Below are positions 6,561-58,381 of a stretch of DNA of 64,000 bases, piece after piece. Each line of letters opens with the position of its first letter. The stretch's first letter is position 1. Below the pieces are notes generated by a model. It made no database searches and was not told the origin of the DNA. It saw only the letters and a program-made list of their open reading frames with translations. Source of the DNA: Bacilli bacterium (GTDB lineage: Bacteria > Bacillota_I > Bacilli_A > RF39 > UBA660); assembly GCA_017460175.1 (NCBI GenBank), contig JAFUBO010000004.1:23592-87591 (forward strand), given 5' to 3'. A program made the translations under genes and the position numbers.

Positions 6561-8966
6561 TTATCTTCTATTTCTATTATATGAATATTCTTTTGAAGAA
6601 ACAATTGGATTACCATCTTCATCATATGATATATATTGTTCATCGTATTCAATATATGCTTGACCATTATCTACATCAATATATTCGATAAGATCATCAT
6701 ATGATACTTTTGCTGTATTATTTATATAGTTTCTTTCCTCAAATGCATTTTCAGTATCTTCTGGATTTGGTAAAGGTTCATAAGCTCCACTTGGATCTGT
6801 GGTAATGTTTTGAACTGAATCATCTAAATTTCCATTTTCATCAGAGTATTCATCATCAAAATCTACATTAGAAGAAAAGTCATCTTCATTTACTGATATA
6901 TTATTTGATGGGTCTATATCACTATTGTTTTGATCTATTTTATCATTTGCAGTATTTATATCGTCTTGTAATTGTTGTTGTTCTTGTGCTATTTCTTGAT
7001 TTATTTTATCTGCATTTGCATCTTCTAAATCTTGTTGTCTTCTTGCTTCTTCTTCTGCTTCTTCTGATCCTCTACGGCTTGCTTCTTGATTTTCTTCATC
7101 AATATCATTATCAATATCGTTACGAACATCAGTAGGTATTTCTCCTTCAGTTGTAGAAGTAACCGTATCATATGTTGTAGATGATTCTTCCCAAGAAACT
7201 GTTTCTGAGTATGTTGCTTCTGTATATGTTGTATCTTCATATAATGTAAATTCATTACCTAATAGAATATTTTCTCTATTAACTATTGATTGGAATAAAT
7301 AAAGATTAGCTAATTCTCTATGTTCGTCATCAATTACATATTCATTTCTATCAGTTAAATCTTTTATTATTGAACTTCTATATTGTTCATATAATGGATT
7401 TTCATTGTCTTCATATGCACCTAACATTATAGTTTCAATACGTTCAAACTTATCATCAGCATGATTACATAAACCAATATCATTTATAAAATCAATTGAT
7501 GTATCATCTAGTGTATTATCTACTTCTAAATTTTGGAATATTATTTCAGCTGCAGCTATCATAGGTGTAACAGCTAATTGATAATCTTTTAATGAATTTC
7601 TACTATCAGCATGTGATATTCCTTCTGTTCTTTCTTCTTCAGTTATTGGGAAGTCTTCTTTAACTGCTGCATAGAATTCGTTAACTAATTCTATTTGTTC
7701 TTCACCTGTTGCTTCTTTAGCAGCTAAGAACATATTATGATATCTAGCATAGAATTCTTTTCCTTCATCACTGTTTATTAAATTTGACATATCTACAGGA
7801 TTTTGACTATTTTCAATTACATAAGCTCCCATTAATTGTAATGATGCATCTTTATATGCGTTTGACATATCTTCAGCGTTTATTACTGTTCCATTGAAAT
7901 ATGCTCTAACATCTTCAACGCTGTAATCATTATACGCTTGTTGTAATGCAACCATTTCATCAAATGATAAAGCTGCTCTAATATTATTTGCATTTTCTAA
8001 GTAAGCATTTGCAAATGTACCATTAAATGCATTTAGTGAAGCACTTAAATTGATCATAGAATCTTTTTGTGTATCACTCAATGTAACATTTAATAATTCT
8101 GCAAATGTATAATCATTATATAAATCATTATTTGCAGTAAATTCTGTACTTTCAGTTTGATCAGTACTACTTAAAGTTGGACCATATAATGTATCATCAA
8201 TTGTATTTTCATCTTCTAATGTTGTTGTTGTAGTTGTAGTTGTTGGTAAATTACTATTTTTAATTTCTCCTGTTTTCTTTTTATGACAACATGCAAATAT
8301 AGTTCCAGCTACTAGTAATCCTAATAAACCAGCACCAATTTTTATTCCTAAATAATTTCTTTTTGCTAATTTTTCTCCTGCTCTATTAATGAAATTATCT
8401 TCATCTTCTATAATGATTTCGTCTTCTAATTCTTCATCTTCTATTTCTTCATCAAATGATGCATCAAGTTTTTCTTCTTCTACTTCTTCTTCATAAGATT
8501 CACTGATTTGTTCATCTTCTATATTTTTACTAGGATAGTAGTAATCTTCACTAATATATTCTTCTTGTTTTTCTTCATCATTAACTACTATTGTACTATT
8601 ATTAATAGTAGTAATTTCAGGTTCTGTTTCTTTTTCTTCATCATTAACTACTATTGTACTATTATCAACAGTAGTAATTTCAGATTCTGTTTCTTTTTCT
8701 TCGTTTTTTTCAATAAATATGTTGTATTTATCCATAAATTCATCAATTGTCATTACATGGAATACATCTTTATTAATCATTTCTTTTAAAGTTTCTTTTG
8801 ATGTAATATTTCTTTGTTTAGCTACTTCTTCACATGCTACTAAACCTTCTTCATAACTACCAATTTTTCTTCTACCATCACTATAGAAAATACATGAGTT
8901 AACTATTCTTTTTCCATTTTCATAGTAATAATATATAACTATATCTTTAATTAAATCTTTTTCCAT
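6561..8966 (-). CDS. Large single-pass membrane protein with extremely acidic low-complexity regions and internal tandem repeats
   Basis: This is an 801-aa protein with a globular N-terminal ~90 aa. It has D/E-rich tracts and one TM segment 'LGIKIGAGLLGLLVAGTIFACC'. A Thr8 linker and duplicated 'EKETE(S/P)EITT(V/I)(D/N)NSTIVVNDEEK' modules (nt ~8560-8700) follow. The C-terminus is acidic with a Q/E-rich coiled-coil-like region. Confidence 0.5.
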   Translation of the reverse strand: MEKDLIKDIVIYYYYENGKRIVNSCIFYSDGRRKIGSYEEGLVACEEVAKQRNITSKETLKEMINKDVFHVMTIDEFMDKYNIFIEKNEEKETESEITTVDNSTIVVNDEEKETEPEITTINNSTIVVNDEEKQEEYISEDYYYPSKNIEDEQISESYEEEVEEEKLDASFDEEIEDEELEDEIIIEDEDNFINRAGEKLAKRNYLGIKIGAGLLGLLVAGTIFACCHKKKTGEIKNSNLPTTTTTTTTLEDENTIDDTLYGPTLSSTDQTESTEFTANNDLYNDYTFAELLNVTLSDTQKDSMINLSASLNAFNGTFANAYLENANNIRAALSFDEMVALQQAYNDYSVEDVRAYFNGTVINAEDMSNAYKDASLQLMGAYVIENSQNPVDMSNLINSDEGKEFYARYHNMFLAAKEATGEEQIELVNEFYAAVKEDFPITEEERTEGISHADSRNSLKDYQLAVTPMIAAAEIIFQNLEVDNTLDDTSIDFINDIGLCNHADDKFERIETIMLGAYEDNENPLYEQYRSSIIKDLTDRNEYVIDDEHRELANLYLFQSIVNRENILLGNEFTLYEDTTYTEATYSETVSWEESSTTYDTVTSTTEGEIPTDVRNDIDNDIDEENQEASRRGSEEAEEEARRQQDLEDANADKINQEIAQEQQQLQDDINTANDKIDQNNSDIDPSNNISVNEDDFSSNVDFDDEYSDENGNLDDSVQNITTDPSGAYEPLPNPEDTENAFEERNYINNTAKVSYDDLIEYIDVDNGQAYIEYDEQYISYDEDGNPIVSSKEYSYNRNRR

Positions 8967-8979
8967 TAGTGATACCCCC

Positions 8980-28665: not shown

Positions 28666-29841
28666 ATGTTAGATGATTTTTTAGAAGATCTAGGTTATAG
28701 TAATGATCAAATTAAAATTGTTCATAATATATATCCCAATAAAATATATTCTGAATCTTCTTTGTTATTTAATTTTAAAAATTTATATTATTATCTAAAT
28801 AAAAATAACATTAGTAATGAAGATTTTATTAATATAACAATGACAATACCTAGTATTATTTCTCTTAGTTTAGAGGATATTAATAATAAAATTATTGAAT
28901 TAAATGATTTGGGTTTTAATAAAATTAATTCATTTAAATTAATATCAAAATATCCATATATCATTGAAATTAATAAATCAACATTAAAAAATAGTATCAA
29001 TAGTTTTAAAAGTATAGGTTTTAAGGAAAATGATATTATTACAGTTATTGTTAATAATCCTAGTTTACTTCAAGGTGATTTTTCTAATTATAAGTGTGTT
29101 ATAGATTATTTAATTAATTATGGATATTCTAATGATAATATTATGAGATTGATTAGAAAAATTCCTGAATTATTAAATTTGAATATTATTGATATTAAAA
29201 ATAAATACAAAAAGATTGAAGATTTTGGATTTGATCAAAATGTTGTCATTCAAATAACTAATATAATTCCTAGTATTTTGTTATCTGATAAAAATTTAAT
29301 TACTGATTATTTTGATTCTTTATTATCATTTGGATATACTAATATGGATATTATTGAGATAATTAAAAAAATTCCTATTATATTTAAAGATAGATATAGA
29401 GAACATTTAAATGATAGAATTAATAACTTTTCTAATTTAGGGATTAATAGTAAGGATATTATTTTGATGACTTCTAATAATCCATATTTATTTTTATATT
29501 CTGAAGACAATATTATTACTATATATAAGAATTTATTAAAATTAAAATATTCTAATGATGATATTAATAAAATATGTGTTAGTTTTCCTTTAATATTTGG
29601 ATATAATTGGAATTATACTCTTGATAAAATTATGTATTATAAAAAAATTGATTTAGATAAGTATTTAATTAGTAATAGTAAAATATTATTATTACCTATT
29701 GAACTAGTTCATTCAAGATACCTATATATTTCAAAATATAAAAATATAGATAATAATTATAAAGATTTATTTATTGATGATTGTAGTTTTTATAAATTAT
29801 ATAAAATTAAGAGAGATAGTTTGCTGAAAGGAGAATTTTAA
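28666..29841 (+). CDS. mTERF-like repeat protein (about 11 tandem ~30-aa helical repeats with L-G-[FY]-[ST]...I..I....P.[IL][LF] periodicity)
   Basis: The repeats 'LGYSNDQIKIVHNIYP', 'LGFNKINSFKLISKYPYII', 'IGFKENDIITVIVNNPSLL', 'YGYSNDNIMRLIRKIPELL', 'FGFDQNVVIQITNIIPSIL', 'FGYTNMDIIEIIKKIPIIF', 'LGINSKDIILMTSNNPYLF' and 'LKYSNDDINKICVSFPLIF' are read directly. A good RBS (GGTGGTGA) precedes the ATG. Confidence 0.5.
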   Translation: MLDDFLEDLGYSNDQIKIVHNIYPNKIYSESSLLFNFKNLYYYLNKNNISNEDFINITMTIPSIISLSLEDINNKIIELNDLGFNKINSFKLISKYPYIIEINKSTLKNSINSFKSIGFKENDIITVIVNNPSLLQGDFSNYKCVIDYLINYGYSNDNIMRLIRKIPELLNLNIIDIKNKYKKIEDFGFDQNVVIQITNIIPSILLSDKNLITDYFDSLLSFGYTNMDIIEIIKKIPIIFKDRYREHLNDRINNFSNLGINSKDIILMTSNNPYLFLYSEDNIITIYKNLLKLKYSNDDINKICVSFPLIFGYNWNYTLDKIMYYKKIDLDKYLISNSKILLLPIELVHSRYLYISKYKNIDNNYKDLFIDDCSFYKLYKIKRDSLLKGEF

Positions 29842-30224
29842 TGGATTTCTTAATTAGAAATGGATTTACTATTGAAGAAATTAAAATTATGATGGATACA
29901 AATGATTCTATTGAATATGTTAATGAAAAAAATATTAATTTATTAGTAAGTGTATTAAAGGAAAATAATTGTACTGATATAGATATTAAAAATATATTTA
30001 TTTGTAATCCCTTTTCTATTACTAATGATATTAATATTATTTGTAATTTAATAAATAAATTAAAGGAATTAAAAATAGATAATTTGAATTTATTATTTAC
30101 TAGTAATCCTTATATATTAAATATGAGTGACAAAGATTTAGAAAAATTATATAATAAGAAAAAAAGAGAAGGACTTAATAATAATGAAATAATTGATTTT
30201 ATTAATTATAATATTATTTTTTAG
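29841..30224 (+). CDS. Short mTERF-like repeat protein (3 repeats), translationally coupled (TAATG) to the preceding gene
   Basis: The same repeat type is present: 'NGFTIEEIKIMMDTN', 'NNCTDIDIKNIFICNPFSI' and 'LKIDNLNLLFTSNPYIL'. The reading frame differs from the upstream gene. Confidence 0.45.
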   Translation: MDFLIRNGFTIEEIKIMMDTNDSIEYVNEKNINLLVSVLKENNCTDIDIKNIFICNPFSITNDINIICNLINKLKELKIDNLNLLFTSNPYILNMSDKDLEKLYNKKKREGLNNNEIIDFINYNIIF

Positions 30225-30234
30225 GGGTGAATAT

Positions 30235-31146
30235 ATGAATGTTGTTATAAAAGTTAATGATGAAATTAAAGAAAAAATGATTGAATATTACAAAGATAAA
30301 AAACGTGATAAAGTAATTCCTTATGTAGTATTTCAAGCACAAGATGAAGATACAGTTATAACTATGTATGAATCAGGTAAAGTAATGTTTCAAGGAACTA
30401 GTGCTGATGTAGATGCTGCTATGTGGGGTGTTGCATTAGAAAATACAAATGAAAAGAAGGAAGAAAAAAAGAAAGAAAATTTGAAATATTATAATGCACC
30501 TAGTGTTGGTAGTGATGAAGTTGGTACAGGAGATTATTATGGCCCTATTGTAGTTACTGCTTGTTTTGTAGATAAAAATAATTTAGAAGAACTTAAAAAA
30601 TTAGGAGTTGGAGATTCTAAAAAAATTGATGACTCTAAGATATTAAAAATAGCTCCGCAGATTGCTAAATTGGTTAAATATAAATCTGTTATATTAACTA
30701 ATAAAGAATATAATGAAAAGTATAATAAAGATATCAATATGAATAAAATTAAGGCTATTCTTCATAATAAAGTTTTATATCAATTAATTAATGAAGAGAA
30801 ACCTGTATACGAATATATTATTGTTGATGAATTTGCAAGAGAAGCTAGATATTATGAATATTTAAATGGACAAAATAATATTCAAAAAGGAATAACGTTT
30901 TTAACAAAGGCAGAAGATATATCACCTGCTGTTGGATGTGCTTCTATTATAAGTAGATATATATTTTTAAAAGAATTTGATAAATTATGTGATTCTATTC
31001 ATATGCCTTTACCTAAGGGTGCCGGACGTGATGTAGATGAAATTGGTGAAGAAGTGGTTGAAAAATATGGAGAAGATAAATTAAAAGAAATAGCTAAAGT
31101 TAATTTTAAAAATACAGATAGAATATTACATACTATGATTTATTAA
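30235..31146 (+). CDS. rnhC: Ribonuclease HIII
   Basis: I chose the start at MNVVIKV (30235), with RBS AGGGGTG 8 nt upstream; the ORF track starts earlier. An N-terminal DUF3378-like domain is followed by an RNase HII/HIII catalytic core: 'DEVGTGDYYGP', '...VDEFA...', 'KAED..'. Confidence 0.85.
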   Translation: MNVVIKVNDEIKEKMIEYYKDKKRDKVIPYVVFQAQDEDTVITMYESGKVMFQGTSADVDAAMWGVALENTNEKKEEKKKENLKYYNAPSVGSDEVGTGDYYGPIVVTACFVDKNNLEELKKLGVGDSKKIDDSKILKIAPQIAKLVKYKSVILTNKEYNEKYNKDINMNKIKAILHNKVLYQLINEEKPVYEYIIVDEFAREARYYEYLNGQNNIQKGITFLTKAEDISPAVGCASIISRYIFLKEFDKLCDSIHMPLPKGAGRDVDEIGEEVVEKYGEDKLKEIAKVNFKNTDRILHTMIY

Positions 31147-31149
31147 AAA

Positions 31150-31180
31150 GAAAAAAGAGTTTTAATAACTCTTTTTTTTA
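31150..31180. terminator. Bidirectional terminator between convergent rnhC and thyA-like genes (AGAGTT-ttaat-AACTCT flanked by A/T runs)
   Basis: The hairpin is read directly. Confidence 0.55.
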
Positions 31181-32356
31181 TATACCTAATGGAAATTTTA
31201 ATTGTGGATTTTTTATTTTTATTAATTCTTTTGGATAATCATCTACATATATATCATCCGGTTTAACATCATTAAAACTTATTACTTCTTCTTTTAATTC
31301 GATACTACATTTTGCATTTATTGGTTCTCTATTTAGCATTTCAATTGTTTGGTCTAAATGTCTATCATATATTTGAACGTTAACTGGTTTCCAAGTAAAA
31401 ATACCTGGAATATATCCTAAATCTCTTGCAACCATTTTATGTTCTGCAACATATTGAACTTGATTAATGCATGCAGCTGTATCAAAGTCACTTGAACGTT
31501 GAATCATAGTCATATCTAAATAGTCTAATCCATCCCATCCATGCCTTACATTCCAAACAGTTAGAAAAGCACAAGGTTTTAATCCATGAGGTCTTTGAAA
31601 ATCATCTGTTTGCCATAAACAAGTTATATTCCTTCTACCATCAGGATTCTTTCTGATTTGTTCTATTACTTCAGTATAAATCATATTTCTTGGACCAGTA
31701 GTACCACCATAACATGAGCCTATTATTGGATGAGATTTTTCATTTAAAATGTAGTTTCCATTTTCATCACGAAGTGCCCATTCTTCCCACCAATTATTTA
31801 TTTTATGATCTTTATCCCAAGTATTCTTGCCTATTAGTTCATCAAATTCTACTAAGTCATTACTTTGTTTTTGATAAATCCAAAGTATTTCAGCAACTGA
31901 TGTTTTTATAGCTATAGGACGAAGTGTAATCATTGGTGTTTCTCCTTTAGATAAATCATATATACACTCAATTCCTTGATTAACGCTTAGTGTATGAGCT
32001 GGAACGTGTACTTCTACTCCATGTTCTTTTTCAATTACTGTTTCATTATCTCCTACTTTGATTTCTTCATTTTCTTTTGTAGTAATAATTCTTTTTAAAT
32101 CATCATATGTAGCATCAGAATAAAAATCATGATATTTTGGTCTAGGATTATGATCTAAGCATCCTTCTTGAAGAATCTTATCCATAATTAATTTGTGATA
32201 CATATCTCCTTTAGTACCTATTTTATGACCTTCTTCATCTTGTAAATATCCATCTTTTATTTTTAAATCGTTATATGTAGTTTTTATTAATTTTAATGGG
32301 CTTTCCCCTAATTTTAGTTTTTCTATATTTATTCTGTTCAAATTAAATTCTTTCAT
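31178..32356 (-). CDS. Thymidylate-synthase-family protein, unusually long (392 aa) with insertions
   Basis: The C-terminal half aligns by eye to ThyA. The features are 'RNMIYTEVIEQIRKNPDGRRN' (RR phosphate-binding pair), 'KPCAF' (catalytic Cys) and 'MIQRSSDFDTAACINQVQYV'. Also seen are 'PMITLRPIAIKTSVAEILWIYQ' and a terminal 'IYDRHLDQ'. The N-terminus has ~60 extra residues and several insertions. Confidence 0.6.
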   Translation of the reverse strand: MKEFNLNRINIEKLKLGESPLKLIKTTYNDLKIKDGYLQDEEGHKIGTKGDMYHKLIMDKILQEGCLDHNPRPKYHDFYSDATYDDLKRIITTKENEEIKVGDNETVIEKEHGVEVHVPAHTLSVNQGIECIYDLSKGETPMITLRPIAIKTSVAEILWIYQKQSNDLVEFDELIGKNTWDKDHKINNWWEEWALRDENGNYILNEKSHPIIGSCYGGTTGPRNMIYTEVIEQIRKNPDGRRNITCLWQTDDFQRPHGLKPCAFLTVWNVRHGWDGLDYLDMTMIQRSSDFDTAACINQVQYVAEHKMVARDLGYIPGIFTWKPVNVQIYDRHLDQTIEMLNREPINAKCSIELKEEVISFNDVKPDDIYVDDYPKELIKIKNPQLKFPLGI

Positions 32357-38817: not shown

Positions 38818-38844
38818 TTAGCACTGCTTTTATTCAAGTGCTAA
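38818..38844. promoter_or_regulatory. CIRCE operator (HrcA binding site) TTAGCACTG-N9-AAGTGCTAA
   Basis: It matches the established consensus TTAGCACTC-N9-GAGTGCTAA with 2 mismatches. It lies 12 nt upstream of the hrcA start. Confidence 0.7.
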
Positions 38845-38863
38845 TTATATAGTACTCTTATTT

Positions 38864-38890
38864 TTAGCACTTGTCAATAGTTTGTGCTAA
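38864..38890. promoter_or_regulatory. Second, more degenerate CIRCE-like inverted repeat TTAGCACTT-N9-TTGTGCTAA
   Basis: It is read directly 20 nt upstream of the first CIRCE, with 3 mismatches to consensus. Confidence 0.55.
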
Positions 38891-38932
38891 AACATTTTAA
38901 AAATAAAAAGCATGTATGTAAAATACTGCTTT

Positions 38933-40786
38933 TTAATCTATTGGTATTAATTTAAATCTTGCTGTTGTTGAATTGTTTTTACCTACTATAATCATATTTT
39001 TTCTTGTAGATACACTATTATTTGTTTGAGGTAGTATATATCCTGTATTACTAGATGATGTTGGAACTACTGTTTCAATAATATATGTATTATTACCTAC
39101 AGGAATTATATGCCATATTTGTTTTTCATTTCTATTTTGATTATCAAATGAATTTGAAGCAATGAGTGTAGTATTTGTTTTATTTAAATCACTTAATTCC
39201 AAAGCTTTATAACCTGAAAGATTTAATATTTTATATTCATTATCATGTCCTTGATTAATATTAGAATCTGTAATTTTTTCAATTGACCATTTTTGTTTAA
39301 CAGAACCGTTAAGTGTACTAATATCAATTGAAGTAGAATTTGTATTATTAGTTATAACTTTATTTTCTGAAAGAACAGGTAATATATAATAATTTCCTAT
39401 ATCTGGTAGTGTTTGTGTTGCGTCTGGTTGATAGGCAGATACTCTGATACCTGTTTTTGTTTCAGTTTCTGAAATTGTTGTATTTTGCCCTAAATTTTTA
39501 ATATATTGCCAATTTACTCCATCATTTGATACTTGAATAGTATTATCATTATAATCAATACCTGCAACTGGTTTATGGAATATTGCAATTTCATCTAAAT
39601 CGTGATTTTCTTGTAGGTCTAATGTTGCACATTTTGAACTACCTTCTGTAGAATATGTTAAAGTTTTTCCTGACGCTACATTAATTCCTTGTTTTACAGC
39701 AGTTATTTTTTGCCATGTAATATTATCTATTGTTGGTGTTGAACCACTTGTACAATCTTTAATATATCTAATATTGTTAAATTTTTCATTTTTTCTAGGT
39801 AATGATTGATTATTTTCAGTTTTCGATAAAACTTTTGTTATTTTTGCTTTACCATTAGCAAGATTAACTCCAGGAAGCATTATTCCATTAACAAAATAAT
39901 ATGTTTTTACTAAGTTTCCGTATGTAAAGTTACCATCTTCTATATTAGTTCTTTCATAATATTGATAGCATGGCGATGAAGTAGTTATTCCTTTATCTAA
40001 TCCATATGCTCCTGCATATCCTGCAATATATGAAGCACCACCAGTATTTGCTTTTGCACTAGGATAAAATCCATCTCCTCCATTGTTTGTCGCTAAAGGA
40101 GAAGGAATATTAACTCCTAAATGTTGTTCATCTCTATGAACATCACTTGGTTCATAGTCTTTAGTAATTCCAATTAAAGTTCCATTTGAATAATTATTGG
40201 TGTCTGTTGCTGGGGTTAATCCATAGTCTATATTTGGTTCTTGTATATTAATTGAACCACCATATGATTTCATTTTATCGTTATATCCATATAGTGTACC
40301 ACCAGCAGAATCACTTTCACTTCCACCACCGGCAGCAACCATTATTCTTGATTCATATGATATTTCGCTATTATAGGCACCTTTATATATTCTTACATCT
40401 GTTTCTCTTCCAGAACCACTGGTCTTATGTTTTGGTACATAAAAATATAATGTTTCTCCTTCCTGTAATTCAATTATTCCAGATGTATAGGCACCCCATC
40501 CTCCAGCTGCACCACCTTGGCTACCCCATAGTTCTATTTTATACCATCCTGTTTCTGGTACTATGTATTCTTGGGCAGTAGGCATATCTCCTTCTGTTGC
40601 TTGAAATACTGTATCTGTTTTACTAAATCTATTTAATTCGTCTTCTATACTCTTAGATAAACTACTTGTATTTGATCTAGTTTGAGCCATAGTTGCCATT
40701 AAAATCGCAACTATCATTATTCCCATAATTGCTAAACCATATATTAATGTAGATATCGCAAACCCTTTATTATTCATCTTTCTCAT
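38933..40786 (-). CDS. Surface protein: pilin-like hydrophobic N-terminus + Gly-rich (ALK/LTK GRD-like) domain + discoidin-like region + C-terminal ricin-B beta-trefoil lectin
   Basis: This 617-aa protein starts 'MRKMNNKGFAISTLIYGLAIMGIMIVAIL'. 'GWYKIELWGSQGGAAGGWGAYTSGIIELQEGETLYFYVPKH...VAAGGGSESDSAGGTLYGY' resembles the Gly_rich fold. The C-terminal ~130 aa carry QxW-type motifs ('QKWSIEKI', 'QIWHIIPV'). Confidence 0.5.
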   Translation of the reverse strand: MRKMNNKGFAISTLIYGLAIMGIMIVAILMATMAQTRSNTSSLSKSIEDELNRFSKTDTVFQATEGDMPTAQEYIVPETGWYKIELWGSQGGAAGGWGAYTSGIIELQEGETLYFYVPKHKTSGSGRETDVRIYKGAYNSEISYESRIMVAAGGGSESDSAGGTLYGYNDKMKSYGGSINIQEPNIDYGLTPATDTNNYSNGTLIGITKDYEPSDVHRDEQHLGVNIPSPLATNNGGDGFYPSAKANTGGASYIAGYAGAYGLDKGITTSSPCYQYYERTNIEDGNFTYGNLVKTYYFVNGIMLPGVNLANGKAKITKVLSKTENNQSLPRKNEKFNNIRYIKDCTSGSTPTIDNITWQKITAVKQGINVASGKTLTYSTEGSSKCATLDLQENHDLDEIAIFHKPVAGIDYNDNTIQVSNDGVNWQYIKNLGQNTTISETETKTGIRVSAYQPDATQTLPDIGNYYILPVLSENKVITNNTNSTSIDISTLNGSVKQKWSIEKITDSNINQGHDNEYKILNLSGYKALELSDLNKTNTTLIASNSFDNQNRNEKQIWHIIPVGNNTYIIETVVPTSSSNTGYILPQTNNSVSTRKNMIIVGKNNSTTARFKLIPID

Positions 40787-40816: not shown

Positions 40817-41356
40817 TCATATTTTTTTTAATATGACTACATATTTATCTCCATACTTTTTATCTTTAATACATATATAATTACTATCATAAATTATTCT
40901 ATCGAGTCTATCACTTTCACATACTATTATTCCCTCTTTATTCAAAATATCATATTTAGTAATTAATTTAATGGATTCTTCAATATAATTACTATTATAT
41001 GGGGGATCTAAAAAAATAATATCAAATTTTTCGTCTTTTAAATATTCTAGTGCTTTTTTATAATCCATATTAAGGACATCAGTATCATTAATACCTATAT
41101 TTTTAAGATTTTTTTCAATTGTTTTAATTGCTTTATAATTAGAATCTACTAAAATTATTTTTTTTGCTCCTTCGGATAATGCTTCTATACCTAGATTACC
41201 ACTACCAGAAAACAAATCTAAAACTATGCTATTATCTATATAATTTTGAATTGTCGCAAAAAGTGATTCTTTTACTCTATCCATTGTAGGACGAGTACCA
41301 TCTATATCAAATCCTTCTATATTTCTTCCTTTATATTTTCCACTAATTATTTTCAT
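40817..41356 (-). CDS. rsmD: 16S rRNA (guanine966-N2)-methyltransferase RsmD
   Basis: 'LDLFSGSGNLGIEALS' (SAM motif I) and 'IIFLDPPY' are present. It is 179 aa. Confidence 0.8.
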   Translation of the reverse strand: MKIISGKYKGRNIEGFDIDGTRPTMDRVKESLFATIQNYIDNSIVLDLFSGSGNLGIEALSEGAKKIILVDSNYKAIKTIEKNLKNIGINDTDVLNMDYKKALEYLKDEKFDIIFLDPPYNSNYIEESIKLITKYDILNKEGIIVCESDRLDRIIYDSNYICIKDKKYGDKYVVILKKI

Positions 41357-51430: not shown

Positions 51431-52615
51431 TTAGTCTCTTGAGAAAATATCTCTAGTATAAATTATATCTTTAACATCATCTAATTCATTATCTACTCTA
51501 TTAACTATAATAGTATCAGAAATATCTTTAAATAGTTTTAAATCATGAATTACTTCAAAATCATTAAAAGTATTATCTTTAATAGTAGGCTCATATATTA
51601 CTATATTTATACCTTGTTCTTTTAATATATTAATAACTCCTTGAATAGCACTAGCTCTAAAGTTATCTGAACCACTCTTCATAGTTAATCTATATACTCC
51701 TACTACTTTAGGATTTTTCTTTAATATCATATCAGCTATATGATGTTTTCTTGTATCATTAGATTTAACTATAGCTTCTATTAAATTTTCAGGTACATCT
51801 TTATAGTTAGCAAGTAATTGTTTAGTATCCTTAGGTAGACAATAACCACCATATCCAAAAGATGGATTATTATAATGAGCACCTATTCTTGGATCTAGAC
51901 ATACTCCATCAATAATATCTTTAGTATTTAGTCCTTTTAATTCAGCATATGTATCTAATTCATTAAAGTAACTTACACGTAAAGCTAAATAAGTATTCGC
52001 AAATAACTTAACTGCTTCAGCTTCTGTAGAATCCATATATTTGATTACTACATCTTCTTTTAGACAAGCATTCTTTAAAAGTTCAGCAAATTCTTTAGCT
52101 CTTTCGCTCTTTTCACCTACTATAATTCTGGATGGATATAAATTATCATATAAAGCTTTACCTTCTCTTAAAAATTCAGGTGAAAACATAATATTATCTA
52201 TATTATATTTTTTCTTCATACTTTCAATAAATCCAACTGGAATAGTAGACTTAACTACCATTGTAGTATCAATACCCATACTAATTACTTTTTCAATTAT
52301 ATCTTCTACACTAGATGTATCAAAATAATTTAATTCATCATCGTAATTAGTAGGCGTACTAATGATTATAAACTTTGCATCACGAAAAGCTTCTTCATAA
52401 TCTAAAGTTGCCCTTAAATTTAAAGTTTTTTCATCAAAATACTTTTCAATATATTCATCTTTAATAGGACTAATACGCTTATTAATCATATTAACCTTCT
52501 CTTCTATTACATCTAAAGCTACTACTTCATTTTCTATACTAAGTAATGTCGCTAAAGACAATCCAACATAACCTGTACCTGCAACTGCTATTTTCATTTT
52601 ATTACTTCCTTTCAA
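51431..52615 (-). CDS. ugd: UDP-glucose 6-dehydrogenase
   Basis: The Rossmann N-terminus '[20 protein letters not shown]' and the catalytic 'GGYCLPKD' are present. It is 394 aa. Confidence 0.85.
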
Positions 52616-52749
52616 TCGACTAGATAATTATAACACAAAATAAATAGTTTTCAAGCATAATTAATTACTATTTATAATTTTTTTAATTTTATTTAATTGA
52701 TTGCATAATTAATTTTTATAGATATTTATATCAATTAAAAACATAAATA

Positions 52750-53634
52750 CTATTTTTTAGGTAATTCTAGCAATTTTCCAATTTCATAATCCCATTTTTT
52801 ATCTAAAAAAGGAATAATTCCACCACCTGTAAAAAAGGTCATTTCTCCAAAATAAATTTTTCCATTTATATTATAAAAATCAACTCTAACGTGTGGCATA
52901 TTTTTTGATAATATTTCTGCAAGTTCTTTCATTTTATTAAAATTTTTAGGTTTTTTAGGAACTTGCTCAAAATCCAAATAATCATTTCTTTTAATATTAA
53001 GTTGATTATAATTCATATCAAAAAAAGCTATTTGTTGTTTGTTTGTGTGTGAGTTTTTAGAAACATACATAATTTTGGGAATACCATCAAAACAGAAAAA
53101 TTTATAATCATTTAGTTCTTTATTTGTTTTATCTTCTATATATTCTTCTGCAATTATCCTTGGCTTTACATTTTTATATGGCCATTCTCTACCATGATGA
53201 TAGTAGTTTGTTCTTAATGATTTAGTTATTTTATTCTTTATATCTATAATATTAATTTTTGATTTATCCTTGCAAATAATAACTCCACCAGAATCATGTG
53301 TACATTTCAAAACAAATTGATTTGGCAAATTATCAAAATTTATTTCATCAAAATTATCCCATACACCTAATGTTTTGATTATGTACTCCTTTCCAATTAA
53401 ATCGTGTACATATTTTTTTACTTCATATTTATCTACTAATTTAATATATAAAGGATTTCTATCATATAGTTTTAGCCATTGCATTTTTTCATTAAAAGAT
53501 TTCGGATTTTTTAAATCTAATCTATGACCTGTTTTGACTTTATATAATAATTTTATATATAATTTATCACTTAGAATATTAAGTAAATTTCTCCTCTCTA
53601 ATGCTAAAATTGATTTCTTAAAAAAATCTTTCAT
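52750..53634 (-). CDS. TupA-like ATP-grasp amidoligase family protein (polysaccharide modification)
   Basis: It is a paralog of the next gene. 'KPRIIAEEYIEDKTNKELNDYKFFCFDG' and 'MPHVRVDFYNINGKIYFGEMTF' are the shared signatures. Confidence 0.55.
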   Translation of the reverse strand: MKDFFKKSILALERRNLLNILSDKLYIKLLYKVKTGHRLDLKNPKSFNEKMQWLKLYDRNPLYIKLVDKYEVKKYVHDLIGKEYIIKTLGVWDNFDEINFDNLPNQFVLKCTHDSGGVIICKDKSKINIIDIKNKITKSLRTNYYHHGREWPYKNVKPRIIAEEYIEDKTNKELNDYKFFCFDGIPKIMYVSKNSHTNKQQIAFFDMNYNQLNIKRNDYLDFEQVPKKPKNFNKMKELAEILSKNMPHVRVDFYNINGKIYFGEMTFFTGGGIIPFLDKKWDYEIGKLLELPKK

Positions 53635-53639
53635 ACTGA

Positions 53640-54539
53640 CTACTCACCATCTTTCATATTAGGTAGTTTTAACCATTCTCCAATTTTGTAATCCCATTCA
53701 TCAGGTTCAAAAGGTACAATTCCAGACCAGTGATAAAATGTCATTTCTCCAAAATAAATTTTTCCATTTACATTATAAAAATCAACTCTAACGTGTGGCA
53801 TGTTTTTTGATAATATTTCTGCAAGTTTTTTCATTTTATCATAAGTATTTGGAACTTTTATATCTTGCGGAGAATTTGGATGCCCATTTGTAAAAGGTAA
53901 ATGATTCAATTCATCATCATAAAAATCAAAATATGTATCACCTTTACCTTGTCTGTTTGATGCTATAAATAGCATTTTTACTTTACCATCAAAGCAAAAA
54001 AATTTATAATCTCTCAATTCTTTATCAACTGTATCTTCCATATATTCTTCTGCAATTATTCTTGGTTTTACATTTTTGTAAGGCCATTCTCTACCACCAG
54101 TATAAAAATAGTTTGTTTTTAATGATTTGTTAATTTTTCGTTTTGCGGCTTTAAAATCAAATGTTTCTTTGTTTTTGCAAATGACAATGCCACCAGAATC
54201 ATGAGTACATTTCAATACAAATTTATTTGGTAATGAATCAAAATCTATTTCATCAAATTTATCCCAAACACCTAATGTTGGAATTATATATTGATCACCT
54301 ATTTCTTTAGCTACCAATTCTTTCACTTCATACTTATCGACTAATTTTGTATATATTGGATTTCTATTATACAACTTTAGCCATTGTAATTTTTCATTGT
54401 ATGTTTTTGGGTTGTTTAAATTCAATTTTTTATCTAATTTAACCCAATACATCAATTTTAAGTAATTTTTATCACTTAAAAAATTCAACAATCCTTTTCT
54501 ATTTAAAAAAGAAAAAGTAAATTTAAATATTTTATTCAT
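53640..54539 (-). CDS. TupA-like ATP-grasp amidoligase family protein (second tandem paralog)
   Basis: It is ~55-60% identical by eye to the 52750-53634 product, with the same 'KPRIIAEEYMED...DYKFFCFDG' and 'MPHVRVDFYNVNGKIYFGEMTF' motifs. Confidence 0.55.
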   Translation of the reverse strand: MNKIFKFTFSFLNRKGLLNFLSDKNYLKLMYWVKLDKKLNLNNPKTYNEKLQWLKLYNRNPIYTKLVDKYEVKELVAKEIGDQYIIPTLGVWDKFDEIDFDSLPNKFVLKCTHDSGGIVICKNKETFDFKAAKRKINKSLKTNYFYTGGREWPYKNVKPRIIAEEYMEDTVDKELRDYKFFCFDGKVKMLFIASNRQGKGDTYFDFYDDELNHLPFTNGHPNSPQDIKVPNTYDKMKKLAEILSKNMPHVRVDFYNVNGKIYFGEMTFYHWSGIVPFEPDEWDYKIGEWLKLPNMKDGE

Positions 54540-56065
54540 TCTTGGATTCTCCCATTCTTTTTTTTCATATTTTTTAATATATTTAATGTATTCTTAAAAT
54601 CTTTATTATATATTAACACGTTTGCAATCATAACAATTACTGAGGACATTGTAAATACTTTTAATGCATCTATAACCCATTCCACATAATTTGTTGCCTT
54701 TACAATATTCATATAATAGATTATACCACAGCATAGTACCATTTCAATAATACTAAATATAGCCTTTTTAAATGCTATGCTACTTTTTCTATATAAAACT
54801 TTTTTTGATGTATAAATCATAAATTCAATTGTTCTTATTATCATTGCAACTATTGTACCTATAGTAACACCTATTAAACCAAATTTAAATACAAGTATTA
54901 TTGAAATCACCAAATTAATTATTGCTTCTAAAATAGCACCGTTTCTTGTTTCTTTAAATTTACCAGCGGCTAAAGTAATTGTACTATATGGTAACCTAAT
55001 AGCATGAATATATTCAGCAAATGACATTAATATTGCAAAAACTGGTCTGTAATAATTTACATCTTTTACGTTTCTTGTATATATACATACAAATGAGCTT
55101 AATAACGAAATAGTACATATATAAATTATCGTAATTAATGTATAATATAGAAATTCATAAACACTAAAACTATTATTTAGGTGTTCTTTCTCATCTTTTG
55201 CTATCATATTTCCAAAAGAAGCATCTACGCCATTACTAATTGCTTGTATTAATTTTTTTATTCCATTTATGACTAGATAGTGAACAGAATATACGGAAAC
55301 TTCTAGTACATTGGTAAAAATTGTTAGTATTGTTACATCAGTGTTACCATGTATAACTGCTGCAATATGTTGTGCTAATCCATCCCATTTTTTTTCTATT
55401 TTATAATTTTTATTAGCTTTACGTAAATTAATATTATATTTTTTCTTGACATAAACATTTTGCAAAATTGGTCTTATAACAAAAATTAAACTACTTACTA
55501 GTTTTACAATCAAGATATTTGCATTTAATCTTATTAATACTACTACAAAAATAGTATTTAAAACTGTTGTTAGTATTTGCAACAATGATACTATATATAA
55601 TTTTTGTTCAGCTTGAAGATATATCTTATATGTCATTCCAAAATAGTACTCTGCAAATGTACTAATTGATATTATAATTAATAAAGTTATTGTAAAAATA
55701 TGATTAAAATTAGTAGAAACTAATGTAGGATATATAAATATCAATATTATAATATATACAATAAAAATACGTGCAATTATCTTAAAAAATCTTTCAGTAG
55801 CATATAGTATATTTTCTATTTCTTGCTTGTTTTTTTTGGCTATTGGTTTATACAATAGTGATTTTATTACTGGACTAAAACCTGAATCCAACAAAACTAT
55901 ATATGCCAAAAATTGTGTAATTGATGATATTAAACCATTTACGCTTGATCCAAATTTAGAAATAATCAATCTTGGCACTATTAATCCACATACTATAGTA
56001 ACAGTTTGCTGTATTAATGTATATATAATATTCTTTAACGCCTTTTTACTTCTCACCGTTATCAC
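54536..56065 (-). CDS. wzx: Oligosaccharide flippase (Wzx / polysaccharide biosynthesis protein, MOP superfamily)
   Basis: This 509-aa protein has ~12-14 TM segments. The N-terminal 'KNIIYTLIQQTVTIVCGLIVPRLIISKFGSSVNG' is a typical PST-family start. Confidence 0.65.
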   Translation of the reverse strand: MITVRSKKALKNIIYTLIQQTVTIVCGLIVPRLIISKFGSSVNGLISSITQFLAYIVLLDSGFSPVIKSLLYKPIAKKNKQEIENILYATERFFKIIARIFIVYIIILIFIYPTLVSTNFNHIFTITLLIIISISTFAEYYFGMTYKIYLQAEQKLYIVSLLQILTTVLNTIFVVVLIRLNANILIVKLVSSLIFVIRPILQNVYVKKKYNINLRKANKNYKIEKKWDGLAQHIAAVIHGNTDVTILTIFTNVLEVSVYSVHYLVINGIKKLIQAISNGVDASFGNMIAKDEKEHLNNSFSVYEFLYYTLITIIYICTISLLSSFVCIYTRNVKDVNYYRPVFAILMSFAEYIHAIRLPYSTITLAAGKFKETRNGAILEAIINLVISIILVFKFGLIGVTIGTIVAMIIRTIEFMIYTSKKVLYRKSSIAFKKAIFSIIEMVLCCGIIYYMNIVKATNYVEWVIDALKVFTMSSVIVMIANVLIYNKDFKNTLNILKNMKKKNGRIQE

Positions 56066-56074
56066 TCCATAAAT

Positions 56075-57277
56075 TTATTTTTTTATAATTATATCTTTAT
56101 CTTTTATATTTGTACATATTAGTGATATTGTTAATATTAATAAATATATTTTCATATAATAACTTATTGTTCCATAATCTAGTATTAAGAAGACAATTAA
56201 ATTACATAATCCAAATCTAACAATACTATTGTCTCTATTTTTGTAATTTTTAAAGATTAATACAATTGGATACAAATAATATAGTAAAAATCCAATTATC
56301 CCTGAATTAGATAATAATTCTACATAATTGCAATGACTATAAACAGCACTTATATCCCACATATTTAAGAATTCCGTTTGAGTTGATAACCATATCTTAA
56401 ATCCATCCATACCATTACCAATAACTGGCTTTTGCAAAAATAAATCAATTGCAAATTTAATAAAATATCCTCTTACTTTAGTGCTTGCATCTGAATTTGA
56501 ATTATTTCCAAACATAGATAATATTTTAGTATTAAAAATGTAATTTGCACTACTGTTATATTTTATAATAAAAAGTGCTAATATTCCAATAAATATAAGA
56601 ATGATTATATTTTTTATATTATTTTTTATTCCTTTTTCAAAAATATGCATTATTGCAACAAGCAACAATAAATGAATTATACATTTTCGGGAACCTGTTG
56701 ATAATGATAATATTGATAATAGAATAAATAAAATTATATTTACTTTATTCTTATTTTCATATTTGTATAGGAATAGTGAGAAAAAAGCTGCATAAGCTAG
56801 ATAATATCCTGCAGAATTTCTCCAGATTCCAAGATACTCTCCCATGCTTGTACTTCCCCACGTTGATATTGGTGAAGTCATATAATAAATTATACCCATA
56901 ATAAAAGTTGTGTATGTAAATATTTTTATAAAAGAAAATATTTTTTCTTCTCTATTCATATATTTTACAGCACAATATATTATAATTATCATTTCAAATA
57001 TATTTCTAATTATTGATGATTGTGTATTTGTTGAATTACTGGCCCAAAAAAATGACAAAAGTGTATAACAAAAAAACAATATAAAATATAAGACTATTTT
57101 ATTATTTTTTAATTCATCATTAGTACTATGCTTTTTTGTGTACAAAAGTGTAGCAATTAAAAGTACTATTGTACTTACATAATGCATATATATAAATATT
57201 TTATCAAATACATATATTGTCAGGAAATATAATATCCATAATAAAGATAAAATATTAATTTTTTTCATATTATTCAA
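56075..57277 (-). CDS. O-antigen/polysaccharide polymerase or ligase-like membrane protein (Wzy-type)
   Basis: This 400-aa protein is very hydrophobic with multiple TMs. It carries a ~40-aa periplasmic-loop region typical of Wzy_C proteins ('STGSRKCIIHLLL'). Confidence 0.55.
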   Translation of the reverse strand: MNNMKKINILSLLWILYFLTIYVFDKIFIYMHYVSTIVLLIATLLYTKKHSTNDELKNNKIVLYFILFFCYTLLSFFWASNSTNTQSSIIRNIFEMIIIIYCAVKYMNREEKIFSFIKIFTYTTFIMGIIYYMTSPISTWGSTSMGEYLGIWRNSAGYYLAYAAFFSLFLYKYENKNKVNIILFILLSILSLSTGSRKCIIHLLLLVAIMHIFEKGIKNNIKNIIILIFIGILALFIIKYNSSANYIFNTKILSMFGNNSNSDASTKVRGYFIKFAIDLFLQKPVIGNGMDGFKIWLSTQTEFLNMWDISAVYSHCNYVELLSNSGIIGFLLYYLYPIVLIFKNYKNRDNSIVRFGLCNLIVFLILDYGTISYYMKIYLLILTISLICTNIKDKDIIIKK

Positions 57278-57280
57278 CCC

Positions 57281-58381
57281 CTATCTAATATTATTTATCA
57301 TATCCATAAACTCCTTAATAACTATGTTTTCTGAATAATTATTAATTATTTTTTCTCTTGCTTTTTTACCTATATTTTCTACTTTTGAATGTTCACTTAA
57401 TACTTTTTTTATTTTTAACTCTAAATCATCTAAAGATCCTTCTTCATATAATAATCCAACTTTGTTACTATCTATTAATGTTTTTGGACCTGTTTTACAA
57501 TCACTCGATATACATGGTAGACCAATTGCCATTGCTTCCATCAATGCATTAGGCATACCTTCATATCTGGATGTCATAACAAATAAATCAGAACTAATAA
57601 GTTCTTCCATTATATTATTTGTTCTTTCTTTTAAGAAAACTGTATTGCTTAAATTATATTTTTTTATTAATTCTAATAATTTATTTTTATTAGGGCCATC
57701 ACCAAATATTTTTAATTTTATATTAGGATAAGTGTTTTTTAAATCATATATTGCCCTTATAAGCATCTCATGGTTTTTTTGATTTGTTAATCGACCTACA
57801 CTAATAATATTAGTTATGTTTTTGTTATATATATTTTTCTTATTTTCTATAAATTCTGGTGATATAGGATTGTTTACAACATAAATTTTTTTATTTAATT
57901 GATTATCAAAAAAACTTTTTTGTTCATCATTTTGAACCATAATTGCATCACATTTTCTATTTATGTAATTTCTCATTATCTTATCTATCATTTTTCCTTC
58001 TTCATGCCATGGTGAATCTCTTATTGTTCTTATGAAGTATGCATTTGTAAATCTACTAGCAAGATAAGATACATATAAAATTGTACCAACAAATGGTATG
58101 ATGATATCAGGAGATATTTCTTTTATAATTTTTTTCATATCTGTAATTCGTTTTAATTTTGTAATAATACTATCTTTCCTATGTGGCATATAATGAACAT
58201 TAACTTTGTCATCTATTCTGTAATTATTATTACTTTTTTCATATAATATTATGTGAATATCATAGTTTTGTTTTACTAAACTATTACATAATACAGACAC
58301 TACTCTTTCTGCTCCTCCTCCAGTTAAACTTCGAATTATAAACAATATTCTTTGTTTTTTTATTATTTTCATATCATTCAT
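57281..58381 (-). CDS. Glycosyltransferase family 4 (GT-B, retaining)
   Basis: The N-terminal 'GGGAERVV' and the C-terminal 'EGMPNALMEAMAIGLPCIS' (EX7E-type motif) are present. Confidence 0.75.
   Translation of the reverse strand: MNDMKIIKKQRILFIIRSLTGGGAERVVSVLCNSLVKQNYDIHIILYEKSNNNYRIDDKVNVHYMPHRKDSIITKLKRITDMKKIIKEISPDIIIPFVGTILYVSYLASRFTNAYFIRTIRDSPWHEEGKMIDKIMRNYINRKCDAIMVQNDEQKSFFDNQLNKKIYVVNNPISPEFIENKKNIYNKNITNIISVGRLTNQKNHEMLIRAIYDLKNTYPNIKLKIFGDGPNKNKLLELIKKYNLSNTVFLKERTNNIMEELISSDLFVMTSRYEGMPNALMEAMAIGLPCISSDCKTGPKTLIDSNKVGLLYEEGSLDDLELKIKKVLSEHSKVENIGKKAREKIINNYSENIVIKEFMDMINNIR

Follow-up and report, generated by a model that had tools for sequence, protein, structure and literature searches.

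A surface protein with a constant prepilin-like N-terminus and variable binding heads in a conserved rsmD-X-hrcA slot of uncultured Bacilli

The window analysed here is a 64,000-nucleotide stretch from a Bacilli bacterium of the RF39 lineage UBA660 (assembly GCA_017460175.1, contig JAFUBO010000004.1). Its subject is a minus-strand gene between rsmD and hrcA that encodes a protein of 617 amino acids. The protein is most likely a surface-exposed, multi-domain binding protein with a predicted affinity for glycans, and it probably extends the known modular-pilin adhesins and surface lectins by a further variant. A conserved N-terminal module is followed by binding domains that are swapped between lineages in one fixed chromosomal slot. 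The same genome has canonical pilins, and several pilins of the clade end in the same glycine-rich domain that is found here. The favoured interpretation, which is tentative and somewhat short of even odds, is a degenerate modular pilin that lacks the glutamate at position +5 (Glu5) and displays an array of lectin-type domains. Such a modular pilin would probably be placed at the tip of a filament.

The 617-residue protein consists of four parts, namely an N-terminal helix, an ALK/LTK-type glycine-rich domain, a discoidin-like beta-sandwich, and a ricin-B beta-trefoil. Their positions in the window are as follows, with ↓ marking a putative cleavage site.

38933..40786, minus strand: complete open reading frame of 617 amino acids, stop codon included; variable-headed surface protein in the conserved rsmD-X-hrcA slot.
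40763..40786, minus strand: basic leader, residues 1–8 (MRKMNNKG), with invariant G8 and a putative prepilin-peptidase site G8↓F9.
40625..40762, minus strand: long alpha-helix, residues 9–54, from the AlphaFold2 model, with invariant Thr13 at the position of the pilin Glu5.
39812..40576, minus strand: ALK/LTK-type TNF-like and glycine-rich (TG) domain, residues ~71–325, from Pfam, profile, and Foldseek matches.
39422..39784, minus strand: discoidin-like (F5/8 type C, NedA-like) beta-sandwich, residues ~335–455, from Pfam matches in orthologs and the model.
38936..39409, minus strand: ricin-B-type beta-trefoil lectin domain, residues ~460–617, from PF14200, Foldseek, and QxW repeats.

The N-terminus of the open reading frame reads MRKMNNKGFAISTLIYGLAIMGIMIVAIL, which matches the one quoted in the initial annotation. 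The AlphaFold2 model, made from an alignment of 79 homologs, has a mean pLDDT (predicted local distance difference test) of 90.5 and a pTM (predicted template modelling score) of 0.86. It contains a single helix of 48 residues (7–54) and a low-confidence hinge at residues 50–56 (pLDDT below 50), after which all domains are beta or coil.

The glycine-rich domain is recognised in sequence and in predicted structure. ALK_LTK_GRD (PF12810) matches the protein with 58.2 bits against a cutoff of 24.5, and orthologs from the same slot reach up to 124.6 bits. Human ALK and LTK rank first when the family profile is compared with the sequences of the PDB (E 0.004). Foldseek against the PDB retrieves the TG domains of LTK and ALK, including 7nx1 (E 2.7e-7) and 7nwz, 7mzy, 7lrz, and 7lir (E 1e-6 to 5e-6); the TM-scores are low because the query was the whole four-part protein. 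Conserved glycine runs, of the kind that build the polyglycine-II helix bundle of ALK/LTK domains, are found at G153–155, G162–163, G236–239, and G249–250, where DSSP assigns coil at high pLDDT. Metazoan TG domains (PDB 7nx1, 7n00, and 7lrz) have the same PF12810 match and fold, with an identity of about 14–16%. They bind ALKAL cytokines and drive receptor dimerisation, whereas the protein of the window has no kinase and pairs the domain with two lectin-type domains.

The initial annotation was right about this ALK/LTK-type fold, but not about its rarity. It also turns up in other large surface proteins and in canonical pilins of this clade, as well as in numerous proteins of phages and giant viruses. 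In a comparison with predicted viral structures, glycine-rich-domain proteins of phages and giant viruses match best, and many of them were automatically named "receptor protein-tyrosine kinase"; the fold is consequently much less rare than had been assumed. In a relative (L090 1–6701), a protein of more than 3,244 amino acids contains a PF12810 domain, and the domain looks like a common surface module in the clade. A literature search for PF12810 gave one unrelated paper only.

Discoidin (F5/8 type C) membership of the middle domain is probable when judged through its family. The 617-residue protein itself stays below threshold with F5_F8_type_C_2 (PF22633; 21.8 bits against 27.8) and with the second F5/8 type C score of the PF00754/PF22633 test (18.2 bits against 28.2). 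In contrast, the homologous region of orthologs passes PF22633 with 35.0 and 32.5 bits, and the model has high-confidence beta-strands across residues 339–450. The F5/8 type C domain that had been put forward for checking is thus missed in this sequence, but it is found in orthologs.

The C-terminal domain passes RicinB_lectin_2 (PF14200) marginally, with 25.8 bits against a cutoff of 25.6, while orthologs score 41–51 bits (top 51.2). The weak Pfam scores of this protein are due to divergence and not to chance, because orthologs in the same slot score much higher. Foldseek against the PDB matches the trefoil to ThreeFoil, HA17, and fungal ricin-B lectins, with target TM-scores of 0.74–0.80 (entries 3pg0, 3win_C, and 4lo7_C). 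The QxW lectin repeats described earlier for the C-terminus are present; two are conserved (Q498-K-W500 and Q556-I-W558) and a third is degenerate. Botulinum HA33 and HA17 and the fungal ricin-B lectins share the beta-trefoil and the QxW repeats. In contrast to these lectins, only two clear repeats occur here, and a toxin or enzyme partner domain is absent. A toxin or enzyme reading, based on fold matches to HA33 and a mosquitocidal toxin, was rejected, since the ricin-B trefoil common to them accounts for these matches and the protein lacks a catalytic domain. NCBIfam gave no match to the 617-residue protein at E<=1. The glycine-rich and the lectin domain, on both of which the initial annotation depended, were each matched, and the predicted domains are most naturally read as those of a surface protein that binds carbohydrates.

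The family is uncharacterised but large. There are more than 500 homologs, of which the best 120 are full-length with 42–69% identity. The few that have a source name come from "Bacilli bacterium" metagenome-assembled genomes, and the only product name is "hypothetical protein". A scan of one genome per species found 80 loci with a single-copy gene. Judged by their labels (Erysipelotrichaceae, Bacillales, Mollicutes, Tenericutes, "Mycoplasma sp. CAG:877", or "Candidatus Faecimonas"), the carriers appear to be uncultured low-GC gut and rumen Bacilli with reduced genomes. The gene order in nearly all 80 loci is parE-parC-ylbD-ylbE-ylbF-rsmD-X-hrcA-grpE-dnaK, where X is the gene in question. Most orthologs have glycine-rich, discoidin-like, and ricin-B heads, and a minority have a glycine-rich head only, a ricin head only, or glycine-rich and ricin heads together. 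In the same rsmD-X-hrcA slot, a protein of 373 amino acids (L084 10001–11122) has the N-terminal module and DUF285 repeats, and a complete protein of 394 amino acids (L092 3581–4765) comprises the helix and a ricin-B domain alone. The constant parts across lineages are the N-terminal module and the chromosomal location. A constant N-terminal module with varying heads in one slot is a carrier-plus-module pattern, and it supports a modular pilin.

The N-terminal module comprises the leader, a hydrophobic stretch at residues 9–35 (FAISTLIYGLAIMGIMIVAILMATMAQ), and an amphipathic stretch at residues 36–54, and its family motif is NNKG↓FAIsTxIYGL. Residues G8, F9, A10, T13, Y16, and G17 do not vary among the 79 aligned homologs, and N5, N6, and K7 of the leader are at least 90% conserved. 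The mean frequency of the top residue is 0.84 for residues 1–20 and 0.83 for the glycine-rich core (residues 81–100), and it is lower in all other stretches. The Thr at +5 that had been pointed out in place of Glu is thus an invariant feature of these homologs. The motif of the wider clade is (K/R)G↓FA(I/V/F)(S/T)(S/T)xxY, in which +5 is Thr or Ser and never Glu. A profile of residues 1–57, searched against 1.84 billion representative proteins, finds at least 727 clusters (50% identity) at E<=1e-3 and 302 at E<=1e-10, and the match is at the extreme N-terminus in all 150 matches listed. A general sorting signal common to many proteins was considered and rejected, as the genome scan put the motif almost only in the rsmD-X-hrcA slot. 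In one protein from the profile search (P0371, 354 amino acids) a Mur_ligase_M domain comes after the module; this may reflect a chimera of gene calling or assembly and not a real fusion.

A canonical pilin of the same genome, P0143 (L085 10001–13549), has 1182 amino acids and starts with MKLNKKG↓FTLTELLVVIAILGIITGLSIP, with FTLTELLVV after the cleavage site. It passes TIGR02532 with 28.3 bits against 16.3, bears the NCBI name "type II secretion system protein", and lies on the same ENA contig (k141_245669) as the genes of the window. A second canonical prepilin-type protein is encoded near it (L085 22786–23502; MKKNG↓FTFAELL). Both sit among rnr, thrS, and dnaG, and comEA and comEC (L085 2166–4722) are 5–8 kb upstream. 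The homologs of a canonical giant pilin of the clade are a large set of N_methyl proteins of 640–1,390 amino acids that contain Listeria-Bacteroides and TSP1 repeats, and at least five of them end in a PF12810 domain. The N_methyl pilins of related bacteria that end in PF12810 (P0184, P0186, P0195, P0206, and P0207) also have Listeria-Bacteroides repeats; one example reads ...NTGNYKLEVWGAQGG..., a motif shared with GWYKIELWGSQGG in the 617-residue protein. Canonical large pilins whose surroundings were checked for pilus machinery in five genomes all lie among housekeeping genes.

The 617-residue protein resembles P0143, P0184, P0186, and P0207 in its host lineage, its near-identical leader of the form (L/M)N(K/N)KG↓F, and its location of the scattered, housekeeping type, and it shares the PF12810 module with several canonical pilins of the clade. 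In contrast, these canonical pilins have FTL(T/V)E with Glu5, a Gly14 and Pro22 pattern, a head of about 120 residues in which cysteines are conserved, and a passing score with TIGR02532 or PF07963. The 617-residue protein lacks all of these.

The leader of the protein resembles the class III type in that it is short and hydrophilic and ends in Gly with Phe at +1 (MRKMNNKG↓F). Its hydrophobic residues 9–35 open the AlphaFold2 helix 7–54, in agreement with a pilin alpha1 segment, defined here as about 21 hydrophobic residues at the start of an extended helix of about 50 residues. The leader is in register with MKLNKKG↓F of P0143. An hhalign comparison of the family's N-terminal profile with the N-termini of the clade's canonical pilins also aligns the two in register (probability 83%, P 8.7e-6, 22 columns). 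In a hidden Markov model (HMM) search of 1624 proteins, canonical pilins account for 29 of the top 60 (hypergeometric p 1e-31), and P0143 is the best match outside the family. Judged from these alignments, the resemblance to canonical prepilin signals appears genuine and specific, yet it is not enough for a membership call. The type IV prepilin-like N-terminus of the initial annotation is therefore retained as a resemblance and not as membership.

Several observations weigh against a pilin. Every single HMM score against a canonical pilin is weak, at less than 10 bits. The 617-residue protein has no match to PF07963 in Pfam at E<=1 and none to TIGR02532 in NCBIfam. Glu5 is absent in every member, with Thr13 invariant in the 79 homologs and Ser or Thr in distant orthologs. 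The model has no pilin head, and the helix leads through the low-confidence linker into the glycine-rich domain. The gene lies among housekeeping genes and outside any pilus operon, although large canonical pilins of the clade show the same scattering. The window and 84 related loci (1.49 Mb) were scanned for motifs of T2SSE-type ATPases and A24 peptidases without a match, which says little on whole genomes because almost all of these loci span one syntenic region. Genes for a prepilin peptidase, an assembly ATPase, or a platform protein are absent from these roughly 1.5 Mb, which include about 110 kb of the source genome (the window, L085, and L091). Indirect evidence for such machinery in the source genome is given by the two canonical prepilin-type proteins and comEA and comEC on the same contig. 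A literature search on pili in RF39 and RFN20 found nothing relevant. A run of five small genes in L089, similar to a comG operon by size, was set aside as no Pfam match supports it.

Pilins with grafted binding modules, and pilins without Glu5, are both known. PilC of S. sanguinis is a modular pilin that bears a lectin (PMC9934059), and a survey of such proteins mentions more than 1,200 modular pilins with 264 architectures (PMC8179133). PilC and PilB resemble the 617-residue protein in having an N-terminal pilin-type helix to which large binding modules are grafted via a short linker (PMC9934059), and a tip position is predicted for modular pilins of this type from their bulk (PMC9934059, PMC8179133). 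PilB and PilC have a canonical class III signal, Glu5, and a small pilin head, whereas here the residue is Thr, N_methyl is unmatched, and the helix runs straight into the glycine-rich domain. Unlike theirs, the gene lies outside a pil locus. The combination of glycine-rich, discoidin, and ricin-B domains is not among the 15 commonest architectures of modular pilins described in that survey (PMC8179133).

Glu5 is missing both from PilA of S. sanguinis and from the K subunit of the HIJK complex; their class III signals are degenerate and escape prediction tools, and both subunits are assigned to the tip complex (PMC9934059). The K subunit is described as its cap, and PilA is put at the top of the model (PMC9934059). 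The 617-residue protein is like PilA and the K subunit (GspK/PilK) in its putative degenerate, Glu5-less signal, to which the curated pilin models give no match. It differs from PilA, a small 17-kDa pilin with a normal fold, and from GspK, which has a pilin fold with an inserted alpha-domain. PilA and GspK are encoded in operons with partner minor pilins, and the 617-residue protein is not.

As a degenerate modular pilin, the protein would be inserted into the membrane through residues 9–35 and cleaved after Gly8 by the cell's prepilin peptidase. Thr at +5 would leave the N-terminus of the subunit above without neutralisation, and the role proposed for it is therefore that of the top or initiating (tip-type) minor subunit in a filament of the clade's canonical pilins, or at least that of a pilin-like stalk. 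The glycine-rich, discoidin-like, and ricin-B domains would be pushed outward, where they may bind glycans of host mucus or of neighbouring cells. A bolder form of this proposal is unlikely, at roughly one chance in four. It supposes a "headless" Glu5-less pilin that consists of the alpha1 helix only, fused to a swappable array of binding domains at one fixed housekeeping locus throughout a broad clade of gut Bacilli with reduced genomes. Together with the scattered canonical giant pilins (700–1,200 amino acids with Listeria-Bacteroides repeats, TSP1, and glycine-rich modules), it would form a general adhesin display based on the type IV pilin pathway, in which it serves as the universal cap or initiator; the nearest uncultured orders reportedly have no sortases (PMC10868615).

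The alternative that fares best, although it is rather unlikely, is an uncleaved signal-anchor. The protein would then be a type II membrane protein whose helix tethers the lectin array without a filament, and the leader would be a relic or convergent. The unmatched curated pilin models, the absence of Glu5 and of a pilin head in the model, and the location outside a pilus locus are all in line with such an anchor. The related uncultured orders RFN20 and ML615J-28 are reported to have no sortases, and walls are predicted to be thin or absent in RFN20, ML615J-28, and RF39 (PMC10868615). If the clade is thin-walled or wall-less like these orders, a tethered protein of some 560 residues could extend to the cell exterior. 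However, a signal-anchor leaves unexplained the invariant G8-F9-A10, the near-invariant NNK of the leader, and the in-register likeness to prepilin leaders of the same genome, and the N-terminus is conserved above the functional domains. A pilin alpha1N segment is favoured because neither a cleaved Sec signal nor a plain anchor is normally so conserved, whereas alpha1N segments are.

A housekeeping role at the cell's own envelope is improbable. The protein would, whatever its anchor, bind the capsule or wall polysaccharide of its own cell, for example to organise or sense it. The gene is single-copy, near-universal, and fixed beside rsmD and hrcA-grpE-dnaK in about 80 species, and the full-length identity among the 120 best homologs shows a stability uncommon in adhesins. 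The window and the sequence just past its end also hold a capsule or exopolysaccharide locus. On the other hand, heads are swapped or lost between lineages, which better fits diversifying ligand recognition than a fixed self-ligand, and the PF12810 module also forms the distal end of long canonical pilins.

An ordinary Sec signal peptide, cut by signal peptidase I near ATMA34↓Q35 to release a soluble lectin, is very improbable; the first 34 residues do offer a basic n-region, a hydrophobic core, and a small-x-small T32-M33-A34 motif, but the hydrophobic stretch spans about 27 residues, the predicted helix is unbroken from 7 to 54, at least one ortholog (P0006, MATMDQTR) has Asp at position -1, and a discarded peptide would hardly be among the most conserved parts of a protein.

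Since the gene is single-copy and near-universal and its product has three predicted binding domains, the protein is a prime attachment-factor candidate of these Bacilli. It is also a tractable target, given the high confidence of the predictions for its soluble domains. If the Glu5-less signal works, modular pilins would be extended to a form without a pilin head, pilin detectors would be missing a family of at least 727 clusters at 50% identity, and a bacterial setting would become available for studying the ALK/LTK glycine-rich domain. If the helix is a mere membrane anchor, the protein would be an ordinary, though well-conserved, surface lectin.

The window has a G+C content of about 26%, and its minus strand holds nearly all genes. 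The features that border the gene are as follows.

40817..41356, minus strand: rsmD, a 16S rRNA methyltransferase (Cons_hypoth95; Pfam 186 bits).
38901..38935, minus strand: hairpin and U-run, a candidate intrinsic terminator that overlaps and follows the stop codon (fold -10.1 kcal/mol, z -3.66).
38818..38890, minus strand: hrcA promoter region with two CIRCE-like (controlling inverted repeat of chaperone expression) inverted repeats, read directly from the sequence.

The rsmD gene adjoins the open reading frame upstream at a distance of 30 nucleotides, and it occupies this upstream position in nearly all loci; the two genes are probably co-transcribed. Further upstream of rsmD in the window are ylbD, ylbE, ylbF, parC, and parE. 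The candidate terminator hairpin is AT-rich and would end a ylbD-ylbE-ylbF-rsmD-X unit. A consensus terminator scan of the locus did not report it because its stem has too few G-C pairs. The CIRCE-like repeats, TTAGCAC-N13-GTGCTAA and TTAGCACTT-N9-CAGTGCTAA, lie just upstream of hrcA and overlap a promoter-like TTGACA/TACTAT site at 38877–38849. The heat-shock genes hrcA-grpE-dnaK-dnaJ follow downstream. From the order of hairpin and U-run, promoter-like site, and CIRCE-like repeats, it follows that the 617-residue protein gene ends the ylbD-to-rsmD unit and that the hrcA heat-shock operon is a separate unit.

Elsewhere in the window, a large capsule or exopolysaccharide locus extends from 51431 to 64000 and continues beyond the window end (L091 1–10000). 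It comprises genes for Wzz, a CpsD-like ParA-family protein, CpsB, a priming transferase, several glycosyltransferases, Wzy, an acyltransferase, and ATP-grasp TupA-like proteins. A cluster on the minus strand at 14062–21220 is reminiscent of a SipW/TasA-type fibre system. Its signal peptidase I, of the archaeal type, is at 19359–19838 (TIGR02228 70.1 bits against 51.85) and scores well below the cutoff for SipW itself. The peptidase is flanked by small family-less proteins (18872–19351 and 20648–21220) whose N-termini end in A(I/L)YRS-like motifs. At 14062–18840, a protein of 1592 amino acids has a SIYRN N-terminus, seven Listeria-Bacteroides repeats, and a C-terminal Y_phosphatase3 domain.

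Two open reading frames of 801 and 636 amino acids on the minus strand at 6561–10890 are without a credible family. The 636-residue protein has only compositionally biased Pfam matches (such as Apicomplexa microprotein and Tna_leader) and an N-terminal hydrophobic segment. The sole positive GC skew of the window, at 28001–32000, coincides with its sole plus-strand gene block (28666–31146), which suggests a local inversion or insertion.

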